64,000 nt of DNA from a virus. The stretch spans positions 96,001 through 160,000 of IMG/VR virus record IMGVR_UViG_3300044729_001198. One strand, given 5' to 3'. The notes under the pieces were generated by a model. The model ran no database searches. It was not told the origin of the DNA and was given only the letters and a program-made list of their open reading frames with translations. The translations under genes and the position numbers were made by a program. Every line of letters starts with the position of its first letter. Within the stretch, counting starts at the first letter, position 1. Below, in pieces: positions 4,083 to 23,628 of this stretch.

Positions 4083-4260
4083 TACACAATTTTTCACGGA
4101 GGCGTTTGATATGTTTACACTCGGAGTATCTACGGAATTGTCCAGCAGGACACTCACAACTAAATGACTTGTGTTCATATGAAGTCACTATATAATATTT
4201 GAGTTTTCCGGTCTTCTTGTCTCGGGAACCCATTTCTTTGTATTTCTGAATCCAACTCAT
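4078..4260 (-). CDS. Small SWIM-type zinc-finger protein
   Basis: FSCECPAGQFRRYSECKHI matches the CxC...CKH SWIM pattern. Confidence 0.65.
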   Translation of the reverse strand: MSWIQKYKEMGSRDKKTGKLKYYIVTSYEHKSFSCECPAGQFRRYSECKHIKRLREKLCI

Positions 4261-4278
4261 AGTCTCAATCTTACTTTG

Positions 4279-4310
4279 TAAAGATACGAAACTATTTTGA
4301 TAATGCCAAA
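4279..4310 (-). promoter_or_regulatory. Bacteroidota-type promoter (variant)
   Basis: TTTG-N20-TATCTTTA upstream of the SWIM gene. Confidence 0.6.
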
Positions 4311-4314
4311 TTTT

Positions 4315-4959
4315 TTATGCTTTTTTTGGAAAAATATTTGAAAGTTTGCTTTGCGTTGGTTTAGAATCCCACAAATTGTCAAAGTTATCCCACTTACCAT
4401 ATCCAAAGTTATCATAGTCTTGCTTGAATCTCTCATAGACCAACTCACGAAGTTCTACCTCATCCCAACTAACGTTCGATGGTACTTTCAGTCTTCCCAA
4501 ATTCATCTGGTCTATTACAATATCATTGGGCATAAATGGTAAATTGAATATGTCTTCAGACCAAGTTTCGGCATGAATTATATAATCAATTCGTGATTCA
4601 AATTGTGTAATAACTCTCCACTCCGATAAAGCATCACATCTTTCTAATGGGAATTTTTTAAGAGCATCCAAGGGGTCAGTCGTACCACTTGGTAATTCAG
4701 TACCATCCACTTGGTCATGTTTCCAATACGAAATCCATCTATAATATGGATGTCTAACTGAAACTATATGTAAATATTCATTAGGACATTCTTTGGGCCA
4801 ATTGTTTTCATGAGTAAACACGGGCCATCTCTGATTTGCTAATGGTGTTTGTATGTGTGGATTCAAATCACAATACTTACGAAACACTTCAGCCGTGCTT
4901 CTACTAGCAACCTTTGGTGGGCAATGCCAAACAAACCTATATTTGTGAGAATAATTCAT
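4315..4959 (-). CDS. Sulfotransferase (Sulfotransfer_2-like)
   Basis: PAPS-binding-type motifs FVWHCPPKVASRS and SVRHPYYRWISYW. Confidence 0.7.
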   Translation of the reverse strand: MNYSHKYRFVWHCPPKVASRSTAEVFRKYCDLNPHIQTPLANQRWPVFTHENNWPKECPNEYLHIVSVRHPYYRWISYWKHDQVDGTELPSGTTDPLDALKKFPLERCDALSEWRVITQFESRIDYIIHAETWSEDIFNLPFMPNDIVIDQMNLGRLKVPSNVSWDEVELRELVYERFKQDYDNFGYGKWDNFDNLWDSKPTQSKLSNIFPKKA

Positions 4960-16510: not shown

Positions 16511-18412
16511 TTAATATTTCATGATTTTATAGAATTTTGTTTTAGTATCAGTTGACATCATTAACACATACACACCGGTAGGTAATTTTGTCAAATCATA
16601 CTTGGTGCTTGTAACACCACCTTGGTTGATAACTTCATTATGTTGTAACAACCGACCATCAAGTGTAAACAATCCACTTGATAATTTGTGTTGTTCAGCC
16701 ATGTAGTAATCAACCAAGATATAATCGGTGGCTGGGTTAGGGAATGTTCTGAAACCATCTACTAACTCATCCAACAATTCACTCTTACCTCTTCTATAAA
16801 CAACAGTAGCGTCTACAGGAGTTTTGATGATATTTAAGTCATCTGCGTTTTCATCACCAGCTGCTTTTGAGAATACACGAATGGGACTCTCTTCCCAATT
16901 GGTTGATTTAATTTTAAATTTGAAACTAAATACGTTGGTTACGCCGGTAACAAGAGCGGGGTCCATTTGTGATTCATGACCACCCCATAAGATTTTACCA
17001 TCTTGATTAGACAAGAATGATGTCCAACGACTCATAGTCTCACCCATATCCAATGATTCGAATTCAAAAATGTTAGTATCAAACTCAAGACCAATTTGTG
17101 CAGCACCAATTGAATTACCATGAGTAACTAAAGTTACAGGAATTGTAGCGGTGTTATCAGCAGATACGTTTAATTTAGGAATTACAAACTGAACTGAATC
17201 ATCAATGTGTTCAATCATTCGCTGTTGGTCGAGAACGTATTGAGTTCCAGTTCCACCTTGAGCAATTCTGGCAACCAAGTAAGATGTTGTGTTGTAACCA
17301 GTAGATGTAACATCACCTAATACATAAGAATGGTATTGTAATGAATCTAATCCATTAATTACTTTATCAATTGTGTATACACCAACCTTTGATGTTAAGA
17401 ATGTACTTGAATTTGATACGATTGAATCATATTCAGTCTTTCTCAATAATTTAACGTTATATTCACCTGATACAAGATTGTTCCAAGTCGTATCCATTTT
17501 GGCTAATCTATTGAAAACCAAGAATGCGTCAGATGTAGTCAAAGTTCCATTTCGGTTTACGTCACCTTCTTGATACTCATAAGAAGCTGCAGTATCAGAT
17601 TGTACTGAAATGTCAGCCAATCTATATGCATCTACAATAGATATAGCTGAACCATCTTTTAGAGAGTCGGTAGCGATTGTCAATTTAACATTGTAATATG
17701 AAGTGTCATATGGAATCACCACGTTTACTTTACCAGTAGAATCGGTTCTGAACGATGTTCCGGCTAACCAAGTAGAAGATGCTTTTTTCTTGTAGTGGTA
17801 TTTGGCGGTAATCCCTTTAGTTCCATTGTTTTGAACGTTTTTAACAATGAATGGGAATTTCAATTCCGGTTGTAAGAAAGCACCACCATAAGAATACATA
17901 CCCAAAGTTACGTCAATACCGGCACTTGTGGTAGCCAAGTTATTATATGTTGTAGTACCAATCAACTCAAGTGAATCTACAGTAGCAGGGTCAAAGGTTG
18001 ATTTATGAGGTAACTTAACCATGAAAATAGCACCATTGGACCATCCGAACGTAGTCGAGTTTCCGGTGTAAATCAAGTTAACGTTAACCCAGTTTGATGA
18101 TGAGTAGTATGCACCATACTTTGAACTAACAGCAGTTGCTACAGGCCCCCACTTTACGATAGGAGTTTTGAAGTTAGCATTATCATAGAAGAATCTAACC
18201 TGAATACCTGTAATTTTATTTGAGGTTGGGTTATTGAAGTGTAAATAGATAACAGTTGTATCTTCAAGTTTAGAACCTTGAACGAACGTGGTATCAACCA
18301 AGAAATATGGAGAGCTCGAAGCGGGGGCAGGGAGAACTTCGTTCTTACCATTCTGCCCAAACGCTGACACACTCACCCATATTGTAGTTAACAATACGAG
18401 TAATTTTTTCAT
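16511..18412 (-). CDS. T9SS type-A CTD protein with two cohesin-like domains and a dockerin-like repeat
   Basis: Signal peptide MKKLLVLL...; cohesin-like ITGIQVRFFYD and IPVTL...IGAAQIGLEFD; GDVNRNGTLTTSD; C-terminal FPNPA...LFTLDGR...DLTKLPTGVYVL...KIMK. Confidence 0.85.
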   Translation of the reverse strand: MKKLLVLLTTIWVSVSAFGQNGKNEVLPAPASSSPYFLVDTTFVQGSKLEDTTVIYLHFNNPTSNKITGIQVRFFYDNANFKTPIVKWGPVATAVSSKYGAYYSSSNWVNVNLIYTGNSTTFGWSNGAIFMVKLPHKSTFDPATVDSLELIGTTTYNNLATTSAGIDVTLGMYSYGGAFLQPELKFPFIVKNVQNNGTKGITAKYHYKKKASSTWLAGTSFRTDSTGKVNVVIPYDTSYYNVKLTIATDSLKDGSAISIVDAYRLADISVQSDTAASYEYQEGDVNRNGTLTTSDAFLVFNRLAKMDTTWNNLVSGEYNVKLLRKTEYDSIVSNSSTFLTSKVGVYTIDKVINGLDSLQYHSYVLGDVTSTGYNTTSYLVARIAQGGTGTQYVLDQQRMIEHIDDSVQFVIPKLNVSADNTATIPVTLVTHGNSIGAAQIGLEFDTNIFEFESLDMGETMSRWTSFLSNQDGKILWGGHESQMDPALVTGVTNVFSFKFKIKSTNWEESPIRVFSKAAGDENADDLNIIKTPVDATVVYRRGKSELLDELVDGFRTFPNPATDYILVDYYMAEQHKLSSGLFTLDGRLLQHNEVINQGGVTSTKYDLTKLPTGVYVLMMSTDTKTKFYKIMKY

Positions 18413-18416
18413 GAAA

Positions 18417-18665
18417 TTATCCCTCTGATTCTTCGTTGTTCTTTTTACCACCGAAAATCTTACCAGCTTCAGCGATACCAAAAGCACCCAAGGTAATCAT
18501 TACGAACGAATTAAAAATCGTGTCGCTAATGATGAGTTGATTACCCATAATACCTGTTACGATGTCAGCTCCGGCGAAAATAGCCATTACTGTGAATGAT
18601 AGAAAACCTACGATAGTCTTCTCGTTAAAATCATTTTTGTCTTTGAAAATGTCCCAAAATGCCAT
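18417..18665 (-). CDS. Small 2-TM membrane protein (holin-like)
   Basis: 82 aa, two hydrophobic helices and a charged C-terminal tail. Confidence 0.55.
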   Translation of the reverse strand: MAFWDIFKDKNDFNEKTIVGFLSFTVMAIFAGADIVTGIMGNQLIISDTIFNSFVMITLGAFGIAEAGKIFGGKKNNEESEG

Positions 18666-18789: not shown

Positions 18790-19389
18790 TTAAACGATAT
18801 CTTTAGATTCAATCAATGTATAAGTGAATGACTTACCATGAATTGCTCCAGCTTTTCTACAAATAGCCATAAACTCTTCAAAGTCAGCCGCTCTTTTGAA
18901 TACTTGACATCCTTCGGACCAGTTTTCTACATAAGTAGAATCAGCACCTGCCTTGTGGATGTTGATACCAAATACACCTTCTTGAATTTTAGTCTCATCA
19001 TAGTTCATGTCACGGTTTGCGTCACGATAAACTTTTACGGGCTTTTGTTGTTTCAATGCTTCGTACTTACCTTGGTGTAATCCCAAAGTATGTGAACCAC
19101 GATATTGACCAGGAACCAAACGAGCTACACCAGCAGCGTTATGATATTCCTTAACACCTTTAGTTCCAGGATCGGTAGTGTTTACCCATTCTTTGTAAAC
19201 CCAAACACCATTTTCTTTGTAAGATACTGAAATAGCATCATCAAATGCGTTAGTAACTTTAGTTCCGGTAGCAGAGTTTCTGATACCAATGATGTTCAAA
19301 TCGAACCCTTTGTTAGAGGCGTCTTCGAACCACACATAACCTTTAGCTTTTACAGCTTTTTCAATTTGTTCTTTTGTGTACTTTGCCAT
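18790..19389 (-). CDS. Putative peptidoglycan enzyme, L,D-transpeptidase (YkuD)-like
   Basis: GINIHKAG...NWSEGCQVF (His...S-x-G-C catalytic pattern); adjacent to the GH19 gene. Confidence 0.65.
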   Translation of the reverse strand: MAKYTKEQIEKAVKAKGYVWFEDASNKGFDLNIIGIRNSATGTKVTNAFDDAISVSYKENGVWVYKEWVNTTDPGTKGVKEYHNAAGVARLVPGQYRGSHTLGLHQGKYEALKQQKPVKVYRDANRDMNYDETKIQEGVFGINIHKAGADSTYVENWSEGCQVFKRAADFEEFMAICRKAGAIHGKSFTYTLIESKDIV

Positions 19390-19402: not shown

Positions 19403-20014
19403 TTATTTTAGCCACCCATAATACTTGAGTGTTTTTTCCTCACGGTCGGCTAACCCATGAGTTCCACCATTAATTCTTTTTGTCAATGCAAGAATGGTAT
19501 CTTTATTAACACCCTTATCACAAATATCCCATAATTTATTTCTCTCAAAGAAAAACAAAGCAGATTCAAAAGCAAGTTCATTTGCTACTAAATCAGGTGT
19601 TGTAATGATTTCGGGTTTGTTTAAATATTTTGAGAACGCTTCGTAGTTAGCTTTACCAGTTAATTGTAGAGCTCCTCTACCACGATATTTCCAACCATCA
19701 CCTGATGCTTCATTACCATTACCCATTCGGTCAGCATATACTCGATTAGCAATCTTTTCAGGTTGTCTAGCATATGATTCTTCTAAATTTCCAGGAAAAT
19801 ACTTACCAAAGATTCCTTGTAATCCTTGAGCTGAATAATTTAGATTTTCAGAGAATGCTTTAAATCCACCAGTCTCATGTGATGTTTGAGCAAAGAAATG
19901 TGCCGCTCTTTCGGGTGTAAACTTGTAGTATGTCATAGCTGCTTTTAAAGTTCCGGGCCCAAAAGCACCATCAGCATTTACACCAATTTTAGTTTGTAAC
20001 GATTTTAAACTCAT
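19403..20014 (-). CDS. GH19-family endolysin
   Basis: AHFFAQTSHETGGF, ENLNYS, DGWKYRGRGALQLTGKANY, INGG; N-terminal ADGAFGPGT peptidoglycan-binding-like motif. Confidence 0.9.
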   Translation of the reverse strand: MSLKSLQTKIGVNADGAFGPGTLKAAMTYYKFTPERAAHFFAQTSHETGGFKAFSENLNYSAQGLQGIFGKYFPGNLEESYARQPEKIANRVYADRMGNGNEASGDGWKYRGRGALQLTGKANYEAFSKYLNKPEIITTPDLVANELAFESALFFFERNKLWDICDKGVNKDTILALTKRINGGTHGLADREEKTLKYYGWLK

Positions 20015-20031: not shown

Positions 20032-20039
20032 AATAAATA
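20032..20039 (-). promoter_or_regulatory. TATTTATT motif upstream of the endolysin
   Basis: Intergenic, upstream of the AGGAG RBS. Confidence 0.5.
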
Positions 20040-20049
20040 TGTTAATATC

Positions 20050-20619
20050 TTATCTTTCGATTTGTTTTAATTTTAATATATTCAATTTTGGACGAGATGG
20101 TAATGCTATATCAGTTTGCCAGTTTAATGGTGGTTCTTTATCATTTTTATCATCTCTATTACAATCCGGTGTCATTTTATAAAATAATAAATCACCATTG
20201 GAATCATTTTTTCTAACAACATAATCTGATAAATCTACAGCAACTACCGATTGTTGTTGATATGAGTAATATAACCAAGAACCTTCAACTGCTCTTTTAT
20301 ACAACCACTCTGAAATAGTATCAAGTCTATCAACTCTTTCTATTTCCTTATCTATGATTGTATTGTATTCAATTACTCTATTTGTATAATATATCAACAA
20401 GGTATCTCGGATTGATATTATAGAATCTTTAACTCTCGTGTCAGCTTTATACTTTGCTATTTTAGCTTTTTGACTTTCAAATATAGAATTAATTGTATCA
20501 GCTTGACCCTTTGTCAAAATAACAAAAGTATCACCATCAATTACCTTCTGAATCGGGTAACTTGATTGGCTGAAACTCAAATTCCCTACCATTATTAATG
20601 CTATTAACAGTCCTCTCAT
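20050..20619 (-). CDS. Exported hypothetical protein (possible lysis accessory)
   Basis: Signal peptide without a lipobox; overlaps the upstream gene by 83 nt. Confidence 0.55.
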   Translation of the reverse strand: MRGLLIALIMVGNLSFSQSSYPIQKVIDGDTFVILTKGQADTINSIFESQKAKIAKYKADTRVKDSIISIRDTLLIYYTNRVIEYNTIIDKEIERVDRLDTISEWLYKRAVEGSWLYYSYQQQSVVAVDLSDYVVRKNDSNGDLLFYKMTPDCNRDDKNDKEPPLNWQTDIALPSRPKLNILKLKQIER

Positions 20620-20914
20620 CTTTCAATTCTTTCTTAATGTTTTTAACAACAGACTTGGTACTATCTAAATCCCCAATAACCTCGGATACCATGGTTTCGA
20701 GGTTTTGTTTTTCTTCTACAAGTTCTTCATTTTGAGTTTCTAATTTAGAAACAGTACTACGCAATGATTTATTTGCTGTGGTTAATTGTTTATTCTCATC
20801 GGTGAGTTGTACGTTTTCTTCAACAACGACAACGTGACCATGACCACTTGAAAATATTTGTAAACAAACCAATGCTACAAATGCTGTGATTACTATGAGT
20901 ATCTTTCTTTTCAT
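20537..20914 (-). CDS. N-anchored coiled-coil protein (i-spanin-like architecture)
   Basis: N-terminal TM followed by a long heptad region. Confidence 0.5.
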   Translation of the reverse strand: MKRKILIVITAFVALVCLQIFSSGHGHVVVVEENVQLTDENKQLTTANKSLRSTVSKLETQNEELVEEKQNLETMVSEVIGDLDSTKSVVKNIKKELKDERTVNSINNGREFEFQPIKLPDSEGN

Positions 20915-21156
20915 TTTTTACCACTTAAAAACATGATAACGATTTCTTTTAAACTTTTAGAGTTTTCGGTACTTTCGGTCAATTTCTCTTCCAATGAATC
21001 ACGATATTCCTCTTCCAAGTATTCTACTCGTTTTCTATACTCTTCTTCACTCTGCATTAGTTTGTTTAAAAACACCCAACACAAATAACCCAATCCTAAA
21101 ACGGCAAAACCCAATACTCCATATTGAGTTAATACTTCAAACGGACCAAAAGACAT
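20911..21156 (-). CDS. Single-TM holin-like protein A
   Basis: FGPFEVLTQYGVLGFAVLGLGYLCWVFL plus an acidic coiled coil. Confidence 0.55.
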   Translation of the reverse strand: MSFGPFEVLTQYGVLGFAVLGLGYLCWVFLNKLMQSEEEYRKRVEYLEEEYRDSLEEKLTESTENSKSLKEIVIMFLSGKK

Positions 21157-21344
21157 TATTTCTTACGTTTCTTTGTATTATTTAATTCTTCTTTTAGTCT
21201 GTCTTTTTCAGCCCACTGGCGTTTTAAAAACATCCAAGCTACATACCCAAGCGCAAGTACAGCTAATCCTAACGGACCGTAATCACCCAATTGATTAAAT
21301 ACACCAAAATCAGGTACGGCCGGTTGTACTGAAGTTGTATCCAT
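21156..21344 (-). CDS. Single-TM holin-like protein B (paralog of A)
   Basis: FGVFNQLGDYGPLGLAVLALGYVAWMFL plus a basic tail. Confidence 0.55.
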   Translation of the reverse strand: MDTTSVQPAVPDFGVFNQLGDYGPLGLAVLALGYVAWMFLKRQWAEKDRLKEELNNTKKRKK

Positions 21345-21366: not shown

Positions 21367-21387
21367 GCAGCCACAATATGTGGCCGC
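21367..21387. terminator. GC-rich hairpin after the two-component operon
   Basis: GCAGCCACA-ATA-TGTGGCCGC, followed on the minus strand by ATATATTTTATA; only a weak U-tract. Confidence 0.4.
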
Positions 21388-21411
21388 TTCTGACTATTCT
21401 AATATAATAAT

Positions 21412-21990
21412 TTACTCTTTCGAGTTACCATTGTCGGTAGCATATTTAACACCCATAATAGTACCAACTATTGAAAATGCATTTGTCAAAAGAATACCAA
21501 ACATATTGCTCCATGTAGAACCTATGATTTGCGTATCTTGACCAGCCATCATTGCTATAGCGTACATTACCGATGTAATTACACCCACCCCAATTATCAC
21601 AAATAAAGCAACCCTAACAATCGTACCTATTAATTCAAATTGAGTTCGTTTTTGCATTATATCAAGGTCATCGAGTGCTTTGTCTTTAGCTTGTTCAGCT
21701 TGACTTCTTAACATTTCAGACTCATCTAATGCAACTCTCAACTCTTCCATCAATTTAGACGTGTTAGCCGCTGCTACTTCTAATTCTTTATTTTGTTGTT
21801 GTACTTGTTTTGTTACTTCTAGTCTCTTTTTACGAGAAGAAACATCTCTAACAATACAATCTTTTAGATAGGTTTCAAACTCAACATCACCGGCTTCGGC
21901 TTGTAGAATCTTTAATATATTACCCTCAAGATATATTTTCTTTTTGGATAATTCTAATAACCCATCTCTCGTAACTTTTCCAACAACCAT
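21412..21990 (-). CDS. Coiled-coil protein with two C-terminal TM helices
   Basis: 192 aa; starts 2 nt after the response-regulator stop. Confidence 0.7.
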   Translation of the reverse strand: MVVGKVTRDGLLELSKKKIYLEGNILKILQAEAGDVEFETYLKDCIVRDVSSRKKRLEVTKQVQQQNKELEVAAANTSKLMEELRVALDESEMLRSQAEQAKDKALDDLDIMQKRTQFELIGTIVRVALFVIIGVGVITSVMYAIAMMAGQDTQIIGSTWSNMFGILLTNAFSIVGTIMGVKYATDNGNSKE

Positions 21991-21992
21991 TT

Positions 21993-22430
21993 TTATTTAT
22001 ATATTTTAAACGGGGCTGTTTTATTTCGATACCCCTCATAGTCTTTTTTAAACTCAATTAAACGTGGTTCAATGTCATCTGATTTTATAATCCAAAACTG
22101 AGCACCAACTTTTTTTGCCTTTTCGATTTCTTCAATATCCTCTGATGATGATATGATACCAATCACACACCCATTACCATATTCATAGTTTATTTTACGA
22201 ATCATCTCAATACCATCAAAAGATGACCCGATGATGTTCAAATCAACAAACACACATTCAGGTCTTTCATGATTCACGTCATCAGGAAACCACTCCTTGA
22301 ATTTTTTATCAGCTTCATCAGATGAATCTAACGCTTCCATTGAAAGCGCTATATCAAGCAATGAACAAGCATCCTCGAATACGAGATGAAATAAATTTTC
22401 GTCATCAATTAACATTAAAGATTGAATCAT
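21993..22430 (-). CDS. Single-domain response regulator (CheY-like receiver)
   Basis: LMLIDDE, phosphoacceptor VFVDLN, DGIEMIRKI, IISSS, WIIKS; no output domain. Confidence 0.9.
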   Translation of the reverse strand: MIQSLMLIDDENLFHLVFEDACSLLDIALSMEALDSSDEADKKFKEWFPDDVNHERPECVFVDLNIIGSSFDGIEMIRKINYEYGNGCVIGIISSSEDIEEIEKAKKVGAQFWIIKSDDIEPRLIEFKKDYEGYRNKTAPFKIYK

Positions 22431-23323
22431 ACCCTTACCATTAGTTTTGTTCCACAATCAGTCTTATAAGCTCTTATTTTAAAGCCGTGTTCTTTTAATA
22501 TTTCAGTACATATATTCAACCCCAATCCAGTTCCACTTTCTACCTGACCTTCTTTTCTCTGATAAGGTTGTGATAATATGTCAAACTCGTCTTGGGTCAT
22601 ACCTCTACCATTGTCCTCTATAACTATGTAGGACTTACCATCTTCGGTTGATTCTTTGTATATTTTTACCCACTTTGTTGGTGAATCATTATACTTTAAT
22701 CCATTTCTAATTAGATTATCAATAGCAGTACAAAATAAAGCTTCATTTACATCTATGGTTGGTAAATTACTATCAAGTATAACTTGGTTTTTATAAGCGG
22801 TAAGTCTTAAATAATCTTCTAATATATGTTTAATATCACAAGTGGTTTTTGTTAGTTGTGAATTTTGTTTTACAAGATTTGTAAACTCATATACCCCAGC
22901 ATATACCTTTTGAGCATGATGTAACCCATCTTCCACTAATTGTAGTGGAGCCCCAATTCCAAGTTCTTTGATTTTGTCGTCATCAAGTCTACGTCTTAAA
23001 GACTTAACACCACGAGGTAAGTAAGTGTTAATACCGCTATGCATATCATGTCTGATTATCTTTGCGGCGTGTTCAAGATATATATTTTTCTTTTTAAGGT
23101 CATTTGATGTAGTTTGTTTATTTCGTAAGAATTCCATAACCACCATGAAAAAGGGTGGCATAAACGCAATTACACATGAGTATCCAAATACGGCTAGTTC
23201 ATATGAATTTTTACAAATTCCAAAAACAATACATGATTGTACAGCGAAGAACGTAAACATAATCACAGCAGCTACTAAAAGTGCTACTCGTGACCTAACT
23301 GATATTCCATCGAGAGCCGACAC
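22427..23323 (-). CDS. Membrane sensor histidine kinase
   Basis: Two TMs with a tiny loop; H-box IIRHDMHS, N-box DNLIRNGLKYN, G1 IEDNGRGM, G2 GTGLGLNI. Confidence 0.92.
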   Translation of the reverse strand: MSALDGISVRSRVALLVAAVIMFTFFAVQSCIVFGICKNSYELAVFGYSCVIAFMPPFFMVVMEFLRNKQTTSNDLKKKNIYLEHAAKIIRHDMHSGINTYLPRGVKSLRRRLDDDKIKELGIGAPLQLVEDGLHHAQKVYAGVYEFTNLVKQNSQLTKTTCDIKHILEDYLRLTAYKNQVILDSNLPTIDVNEALFCTAIDNLIRNGLKYNDSPTKWVKIYKESTEDGKSYIVIEDNGRGMTQDEFDILSQPYQRKEGQVESGTGLGLNICTEILKEHGFKIRAYKTDCGTKLMVRV

Positions 23324-23324
23324 G

Positions 23325-23513
23325 TCATAGCTCCGACTTTTTGAATCCTATTTTTTCAAAAATCCACTTTGATGGACATACCTTGGTCCAAACTCCAGCT
23401 TGTAGCATTATCACTACAAATAAAACAACATACCAATTGCTCAACAAAATTGATGTCAACAATACAAGTGACATTAACAAGTATACGGCTCTAACCGATG
23501 TCCAATGTTTCAT
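23325..23513 (-). CDS. DUF2892/YgaP-like small membrane protein
   Basis: Two TMs then VCPSKWIFEKIG (CP...G motif); start at MKHWTS, ATGA-coupled. Confidence 0.6.
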   Translation of the reverse strand: MKHWTSVRAVYLLMSLVLLTSILLSNWYVVLFVVIMLQAGVWTKVCPSKWIFEKIGFKKSEL

Positions 23514-23617
23514 AGGGCTCCAATTGTAGCAAAAAATGCTACCTTTAATCGAATCCAAAACCGTGTCTTCCAAGGTAGTGCTTTGAATTCGGGTGTATTA
23601 AATGATTCTTCTATCAT
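23510..23617 (-). CDS. 35-aa peptide heading the two-component operon (not in ORF track)
   Basis: MIEESFNTPEFKALPWKTRFWIRLKVAFFATIGAL; 3 nt after TATTTATT and coupled to the DUF2892-like gene. Confidence 0.55.
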   Translation of the reverse strand: MIEESFNTPEFKALPWKTRFWIRLKVAFFATIGAL

Positions 23618-23620
23618 AAG

Positions 23621-23628
23621 AATAAATA
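23621..23628 (-). promoter_or_regulatory. TATTTATT motif heading the two-component operon
   Basis: Ends 3 nt before the ATG at 23617. Confidence 0.55.

Follow-up and report, generated by a model that had tools for sequence, protein, structure and literature searches.

The stretch of viral DNA analysed here, referred to as the window, covers bases 96001-160000 (64,000 nucleotides) of a 186.6-kb IMG/VR virus record that is rated 98% complete. On its minus strand, it carries a tightly coupled five-gene operon (23628-21367) in which a histidine kinase, a single-domain response regulator (the receiver) and a 192-residue coiled-coil membrane protein, CC192, form a conserved trio. The explanation that we favour, and consider somewhat likely, is that the trio controls lysis as a divided form, in three proteins, of a widespread sensor-coupled lysis membrane protein of phages. 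With this module, the phage probably makes the timing of host lysis depend on a signal that it senses. The identities of the domains, their intact catalytic residues, the structure of the operon with its late-type motif, the invariable company of the three genes and the natural fusions of the CC family in their genomic contexts can all be read directly from the sequences. A literature search found no published description of the module.

The genes for the kinase, the receiver and CC occur together and in the same order in 56 viral loci and in three loci from metagenome-assembled genomes (MAGs), wherever the contig reaches. The trio was complete whichever protein had led to the locus: as far as the contigs permit, it is present in 14 of 14 loci found through the kinase, 43 of 43 found through the receiver and all three found through CC. 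The genes that flank it vary freely. In a scan of GTDB (185,579 species genomes), CC was present only on three MAG contigs from three different phyla, each with the whole trio; these contigs give no host assignment because they probably represent phage DNA that was binned wrongly. Among 50,697 deposited phage genomes, searches at the DNA and protein level turned up nothing related to the operon, to the receiver or to CC, and for the kinase just two weak matches, the qseC-like genes of an Acinetobacter phage. The initial annotation of this DNA, made from its letters only, had regarded complete kinase-receiver pairs as rare in phages, which is true of deposited genomes but not of uncultured phages.

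Fused forms of CC connect the family with lysis. A search for longer CC relatives found 807, and the best 120 of them are almost all PAS-PAS-CC proteins (366-378 aa) or GAF-CC proteins (341-363 aa), in which the sensor takes the place of CC residues ~1-60, and the coiled coil, a DLDxMQKKxQxELI juxtamembrane motif and the transmembrane (TM) hairpin are kept at 50-66% identity. In five of six fusion contexts, an endolysin is no more than three genes away, and in four of these five it is a homologue of the window's own lysin. The order in L076 and L081 is a GH19 endolysin (80% identical to the window's), PAS-PAS-CC, a 94-107-aa protein with one TM segment and a homologue of the window's second lysin, lys199. 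GAF-CC is followed in L079 and L083 by two small genes and a GH19 gene (77% identical to the window's), and PAS-PAS-CC in P0210 by two small genes and a Peptidase_M15_3 gene. In L082, the fusion stands among holin- and spanin-like genes, in the order w82b (a holin candidate also found in the window), one small gene, PAS-PAS-CC, the spanin-like c28 and a p189-like gene. No kinase catalytic domain or receiver was found near the fusions in the five contexts with DNA. Because its fused relatives sit in lysis cassettes, among GH19, lys199-like and M15 lysins and spanin-like genes, CC can be placed among the membrane proteins of the lysis cassette, and the tie to lysis first proposed for the operon is strengthened. 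The fused relatives are of the holin class in a functional sense, as small membrane proteins in a lysis cassette beside an endolysin without an export signal, with pore formation predicted only. Near their lysis cassettes, L076 and L081 also carry minus-strand genes for thioredoxin, PRPP synthetase, both subunits of topoisomerase and a protein of the Sulfate_transp family.

CC192 itself (21412-21990, minus strand, as are all genes of the window given below) starts three bases past the receiver stop. Its small N-terminal domain is followed by a long cytoplasmic helix, variable in length, that continues as TM1; a short loop connects TM1 with TM2, and the two TM segments form a C-terminal hairpin. 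The AlphaFold2 (AF2) model has a pLDDT of 83.5. Within CC192, conservation is highest in TM2, which bears a stripe of Ser, Thr, Asn and Gly and in this, we infer, resembles pore-lining or tightly packing helices. In a profile search with 194 representatives, the N-terminal domain occurred solely in the CC family and always at the N-terminus, which fits a dedicated input domain. A fold search and a search of the ESM Atlas found nothing beyond CC's own family, which has ~7,644 clusters in a metagenome protein collection.

The kinase (22427-23323) begins with GTG one base after the p62 stop and is a short form, with two TM segments, DHp and CA domains and no PAS domain. HATPase_c matches residues 197-295 (E 3.6e-15), and the family profile matches HK853 (2c2a, 3.4e-12), EnvZ, CpxA and others. 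Across 25 relatives, N203/N207, D237-N238-G239-G241 and G266/G268 are invariant, as is the motif YLEHAAKI(I/L)RHDMHSGINT, in which H92-D93 are placed as in SHELRTPL. Pfam HisKA was undetected at E <= 0.1, and the HK853 alignment begins past the His helix. The first reading of intact H, N, G1 and G2 boxes therefore stands for the N, G1 and G2 residues and the RHDMH motif, and the His box is identified by that motif alone, since Pfam HisKA does not recognise it. The near-absent periplasmic loop seen in the initial annotation proved correct, at ~5-8 residues between two TM-like segments.

Most relatives of the kinase have a PAS domain of ~120 aa inserted after TM2. The window's kinase has lost this domain, the short form having arisen within a PAS-carrying family. 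The best solved relatives of the inserted PAS are the flavin adenine dinucleotide (FAD)-binding PAS domains of MmoS (3ewk, 1.2e-20) and Aer. As the domain is most like these FAD-type redox sensors, an internal signal is indicated, and the sensing of envelope state or superinfection that was initially suggested for the phosphorelay finds no support. Two other views of the insert were rejected: it is not periplasmic, since it sits past TM2 and is a PAS domain, and it is not a LOV domain, as it has no NCRFLQ-type cysteine motif. In one lineage (L045, at 4248-4772 on the plus strand, and L046), the gene immediately upstream of the PAS-kinase is YceI-like (E 6.5e-34) and thus of the polyisoprenoid/quinone-binding family, which would fit a redox or quinone-related signal. 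Three loci (L050, L051 and L052; for example L050, 3939-4940, plus strand) carry a second, soluble kinase paralogue of 333-336 aa without a TM segment, in tandem before the membrane kinase. As for the PAS-less kinase of the window, our guess is that its conserved pair of TM segments, acting with p62 and p35, may sense the membrane.

The receiver (21993-22430, 145 aa) has an ATG start in ATGA overlap with the kinase stop. This start is preferred to a TTG that would give 154 aa because the relatives are 143-148 aa long. The Response_reg match, at 30.6 bits, just exceeds the cut-off of 30.2, and D9, D10, D63, S94-96 and K116 are invariant in relatives, in agreement with the earlier description of an output-less receiver with conserved Asp and Lys. 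The AF2 model (pTM 0.75) is a (beta-alpha)5, CheY-like fold, and all of the best 500 matches listed against PDB folds are receivers, with Spo0F first and Rcp1-type proteins also present (E down to 2.8e-8). Because the receiver has no output domain, its output would be protein-protein rather than transcriptional, as had been foreseen.

Two small proteins open the operon. The 35-aa p35 (23510-23617) has a hydrophobic C-terminus and is conserved at 48-77% identity in ~30 related loci; in relatives, it is found after a lysin and before a holin-like c4 gene. The 62-aa p62 (23325-23513) overlaps the p35 stop by ATGA and has two TM segments; C46-P47 are invariant in the family alignment. Its start is most likely the ATG at 23513 and not one giving 82 aa, because it has 62 aa in all relatives. 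It was first called DUF2892-like, and the YgaP-like character of the family is borne by weak matches of 9 of 14 members to YgaP-like_TM (PF11127; best E 0.0029), but the window's own p62 has no match at E <= 1. Seven of the 14 match the related DUF4395 and three match Phage_holin_2_2. Small membrane proteins go with the kinase in several lineages.

All five genes of the unit are real minus-strand open reading frames, and the motif TATTTATT, which stands at 23621-23628, 3 nt before the p35 ATG, is genuinely enriched between genes, so the coupled operon behind this motif was correctly recognised at the outset. A terminator-like hairpin of nine pairs and a T run (21367-21387) closes the operon after CC. 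TATTTAT has 56 coding-strand copies in the whole genome, and 35 fall between genes although only 6.3% of the genome is intergenic. Copies are found 2-40 nt ahead of the genes for tail sheath, tail fibre, head-tail adaptor and GH19 lysin and ahead of the operon, and a whole-genome count gave zero intergenic copies in the replication module. The motif is a candidate late-type promoter; examples of TATTTAT[AT] in the window lie at 1745, 8279, 11832, 20032, 23621, 36960 and 63003. In several genes, the start codon follows the motif by just 2-4 nt, a spacing that suggests leaderless late transcripts. Relatives whose operon opens a transcription unit also carry the motif (5 of 17 distinct upstream regions). 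In the remaining regions another gene immediately precedes p35; in L031 and L038 this gene encodes a lysin, and its stop codon abuts p35.

These features are compatible with a relay that ends at a lysis membrane protein. The kinase would autophosphorylate on H92, possibly with the help of p35 and p62, and the phosphate would move from there to D63 of the receiver. The phosphorylated receiver would dock on the N-terminal domain of CC, which would serve as an input port in the place of the fused PAS or GAF domain. CC would be the effector: with its cytoplasmic coiled coil and two-helix membrane hairpin in a lysis cassette, it would be a holin-type pore former or a regulator of one, and docking would alter the oligomerisation of the hairpin, so that lysis comes earlier or later. 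What we infer are the phosphotransfer, the docking of the receiver on CC, whether lysis is advanced or delayed, and the nature of the signal. Phosphotransfer from kinase to receiver is supported indirectly by the ATGA coupling of the two genes and by three natural kinase-receiver fusion proteins, found in a search for longer receiver relatives; the same search returned no receiver-CC fusion in the receiver subfamily.

The window's lysis genes lie beyond the hairpin. The first are h62 and h81 (20911-21344), putative holin-like paralogues with one TM segment each and charged tails (55% identity over 31 aa, E 2e-11). They are followed, at 20050-20914, by a 125-aa protein with a TM segment and a coiled coil, and by an overlapping 189-aa protein. 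The 125-aa protein is weakly Rz-like, with matches to phrog_739 (E 3.6e-4) and to the Rz-like spanin phrog_214 (E 3e-3), and its architecture of N-terminal TM segment and coiled coil fits an i-spanin. A lipoprotein partner of the o-spanin type was not recognised; the N-terminus of the 189-aa protein is hydrophobic and signal-peptide-like but lacks a lipobox Cys, and a p189-like gene also follows the PAS-CC fusion in L082. A second TATTTATT motif (20032-20039) precedes the GH19 endolysin (19403-20014; Glyco_hydro_19 1.9e-9, phrog_181 1.2e-64), which is followed by the 199-aa second lysin, lys199 (18790-19389; endolysin phrog_33083 at 1.8e-11, and phrog_3000). Searches of Pfam and PDB sequences gave no relative of lys199, whose H...SEGCQV motif recalls YkuD-type L,D-peptidases. 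Neither lysin has a TM segment, and CC lies five genes upstream of GH19. The 82-aa w82b (18417-18665), with two TM segments, goes with lysins in relatives and is another holin candidate. Lysis genes had been reported directly downstream of the operon; the holin-like paralogues, the weakly Rz-like protein and the two lysins are indeed there, but the terminator-like hairpin intervenes.

The phage is uncultured and marine, and nearly all of its genes are on the minus strand. It is T4-like: its PolB matches phrog_262 and is closest to that of Microcystis phage Mel-JY01 (48.6%), and no close relative was found among deposited phage genomes. At 16511-18487, the window encodes a 658-aa protein with a Cohesin domain (2.5e-9), a weak Dockerin_1 match and a Por_Secre_tail sorting domain of the type IX secretion system (T9SS; 32.9 bits, cut-off 27). 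By these domains the protein is a predicted phage cargo for the T9SS of Bacteroidota, and the sorting domain suggests, but does not prove, a Bacteroidota host. Its 246-aa neighbour has no Pfam match at E <= 0.05. A pelagimyophage identity was considered and rejected, as PolB is nearest to that of Mel-JY01 and Por_Secre_tail points to Bacteroidota, the host itself being unproven.

Linkage between the trio and lysis genes recurs among the relatives. In 16 of 40 distinct trio loci, lysis-type genes lie within four genes, with a recognisable lysin in nine and only holin- or spanin-like genes in seven. The nearby lysins are of five kinds (GH19, lys199, Amidase_2 with PG_binding_1, Peptidase_M15_3 and DUF5675) and occur on either side of the trio, which is flanked in trio loci by the holin-like c4 and w82b as well. 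In a quick tree, the lysis-linked loci are scattered in the larger clade and nearly absent from a deeper one.

Several observations nevertheless weigh against control of lysis by the trio. The other 24 of the 40 loci have no recognisable lysis gene within four genes, and in four large relatives (G001-G004, 202-297 kb) the one lysin detected, encoded by an Amidase_2 gene, is separated from the trio by 41-122 kb. Conservation in relatives had been proposed as a check, with unlinking from lysis genes as the outcome that would speak against the idea; the linkage is present in 16 loci, is lacking in 24 and is not close in the four large relatives, so that such an outcome was found in part. Since it persists through changes of lysin type and the lysin is distant in the four large relatives, we regard the linkage as recurrent but not obligatory. 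In the window, the hairpin at 21387-21367 stands between CC and h62, h81, the spanin-like gene and the lysins. The receiver is also far more conserved than its partners, with a mean column identity of 83% versus 52% for the kinase and 51% for CC, and its alpha1 and alpha4-beta5-alpha5 faces are both invariant. Such conservation might reflect binding to a conserved host protein, in addition to the phage partners or in their place.

The last point leads to an alternative in which the relay targets the host. The phosphorylated receiver would bind a conserved host protein, such as a regulator, a protease adaptor or a secretion component, and reprogramme physiology late in infection; CC would merely anchor or sequester the receiver, and the proximity to lysis genes would reflect a shared variable late region. 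Besides the strong conservation of the receiver with its two invariant faces, this is favoured by the high variability of the trio neighbourhoods, by the distance of the lysin in the four large relatives and by the T9SS-sorted protein of the window, which suggests manipulation of host surface systems. We consider it unlikely, however. It leaves unexplained why the CC hairpin is fused to PAS or GAF domains, with no receiver, inside lysis cassettes, and why CC invariably has its place beside the receiver.

Further points against lysis control concern CC itself. It has no match in Pfam, in PHROG or among PDB folds, and no known holin or antiholin family is matched by CC or by the PAS-CC and GAF-CC fusions. 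In addition, CC need not be the holin, because h62, h81 and w82b are other candidates for that role. CC could instead be a regulated membrane effector outside lysis, acting for example in superinfection exclusion or in a controlled depolarisation that alters host metabolism before lysis. Its dissimilarity to known holins and the presence of several other holin candidates would suit such a role, and cellular holin-like proteins can have metabolic roles (PMC5717393). The repeated position of the fused forms between or beside endolysins and spanin-like genes argues the other way, and we judge a function outside lysis to be improbable.

Two loci, L054 (G004, 297 kb, 99% complete) and L055 (6942-7523, plus strand), encode within the module a compact, 193-aa microbial rhodopsin with seven TM segments (Bac_rhodopsin 1.2e-13), and no others with a rhodopsin in the module were found. 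The gene order is kinase, receiver, c34, rhodopsin and CC, where c34 is a 4-TM protein. Helix C of the rhodopsin, RYMDWTFTIPILIYQ, has D and T at the positions of bacteriorhodopsin D85 and T89 and Q at that of D96, leaving no carboxylic proton donor, and helix G, DLTAKLG, has the retinal lysine. By these residues the protein may be a phage sensory rhodopsin that feeds the relay.

Sensory rhodopsin is served by the transducer HtrII, and CC might likewise be an input transducer, its hairpin coupling membrane sensors (p62, c34 or the rhodopsin of L054 and L055) to the kinase, with the target of the receiver elsewhere. The rhodopsin and the 4-TM protein between receiver and CC in these two loci would agree with this, as would the lack of a sensor domain in the window's own kinase and the small membrane proteins beside the kinase in several lineages. 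The fusions, however, put a sensor on the cytoplasmic end of CC where no kinase is present, so that the hairpin would be the end of the signal and not its start. Moreover, the C-terminal position of the hairpin is the reverse of the Htr transducer topology, and the rhodopsin is confined to two loci. We therefore give an input role for CC little credence and return to CC as the lysis effector.

Compared with known systems, the proposed control of lysis is closest in logic to T4 lysis inhibition, in which the holin T is controlled by the antiholins RI and RIII (PMC11413866). In both, a phage signal would act post-translationally on a lysis membrane protein, and a regulator binds the soluble domain of that protein in T4 (PMC11413866), as we propose for the trio. 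In T4, phosphorylation plays no part, superinfection is sensed by RI in the periplasm, and the holin T combines a single TM helix with a periplasmic domain (PMC11413866), whereas the trio has a kinase and a receiver, a cytoplasmic coiled coil with a C-terminal hairpin, and no sequence relation to the T4 proteins. LytSR of staphylococci and Bacillus, with LrgAB and CidAB, is likewise a two-component system tied to holin- and antiholin-like membrane proteins, and LytS reportedly responds to membrane potential (PMC5717393). That system is cellular, and LytR is a DNA-binding transcriptional regulator (PMC5717393), whereas the trio is viral and its output-less receiver presumably acts by protein contact. 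A paper on the pelagiphage type VIII secretion system (T8SS) describes phage kinases, sometimes two, beside curli genes (PMC9599517). It offers another case of a marine phage histidine kinase next to envelope-related genes, and the tandem kinases of L050-L052 recall its pairs, but no receiver or CC-like partner was reported (PMC9599517).

Among pathways with single-domain receivers (HK853-RR468, Spo0F, CheY and Rcp1), the trio shares a kinase core that matches HK853, a receiver fold nearest to Spo0F and Rcp1-type proteins, and intact catalytic residues. It differs in being encoded by a phage, in a DHp domain too divergent for Pfam HisKA and in having a virus-only membrane protein as the partner. 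Intramembrane-sensing kinases of the LiaS and BceS type have two TM helices, a minimal outer loop and accessory membrane proteins encoded alongside. The window's kinase resembles them in architecture alone, its short form having arisen in a family whose other members have a cytoplasmic PAS domain.

Lysis timing sets burst size and phage fitness, and to our knowledge T4 lysis inhibition is the only well-understood case in which that timing depends on a signal. We think it possible, if rather less than an even chance, that a large and globally abundant group of uncultured phages gates a new holin or antiholin by signalling, either through a flavin-type PAS or a GAF domain fused to the pore-forming hairpin or, as in the phage analysed here, through a full kinase-receiver phosphorelay, so that the redox, energy or membrane state of the host would decide lysis, and in at least one lineage perhaps light, via rhodopsin. 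If this is true, the module would be a second route, mechanistically distinct from T4 lysis inhibition, by which a virus gauges the host that it is about to kill. With the thousands of metagenomic clusters of CC, such control could affect the rate at which abundant aquatic bacteria are lysed.

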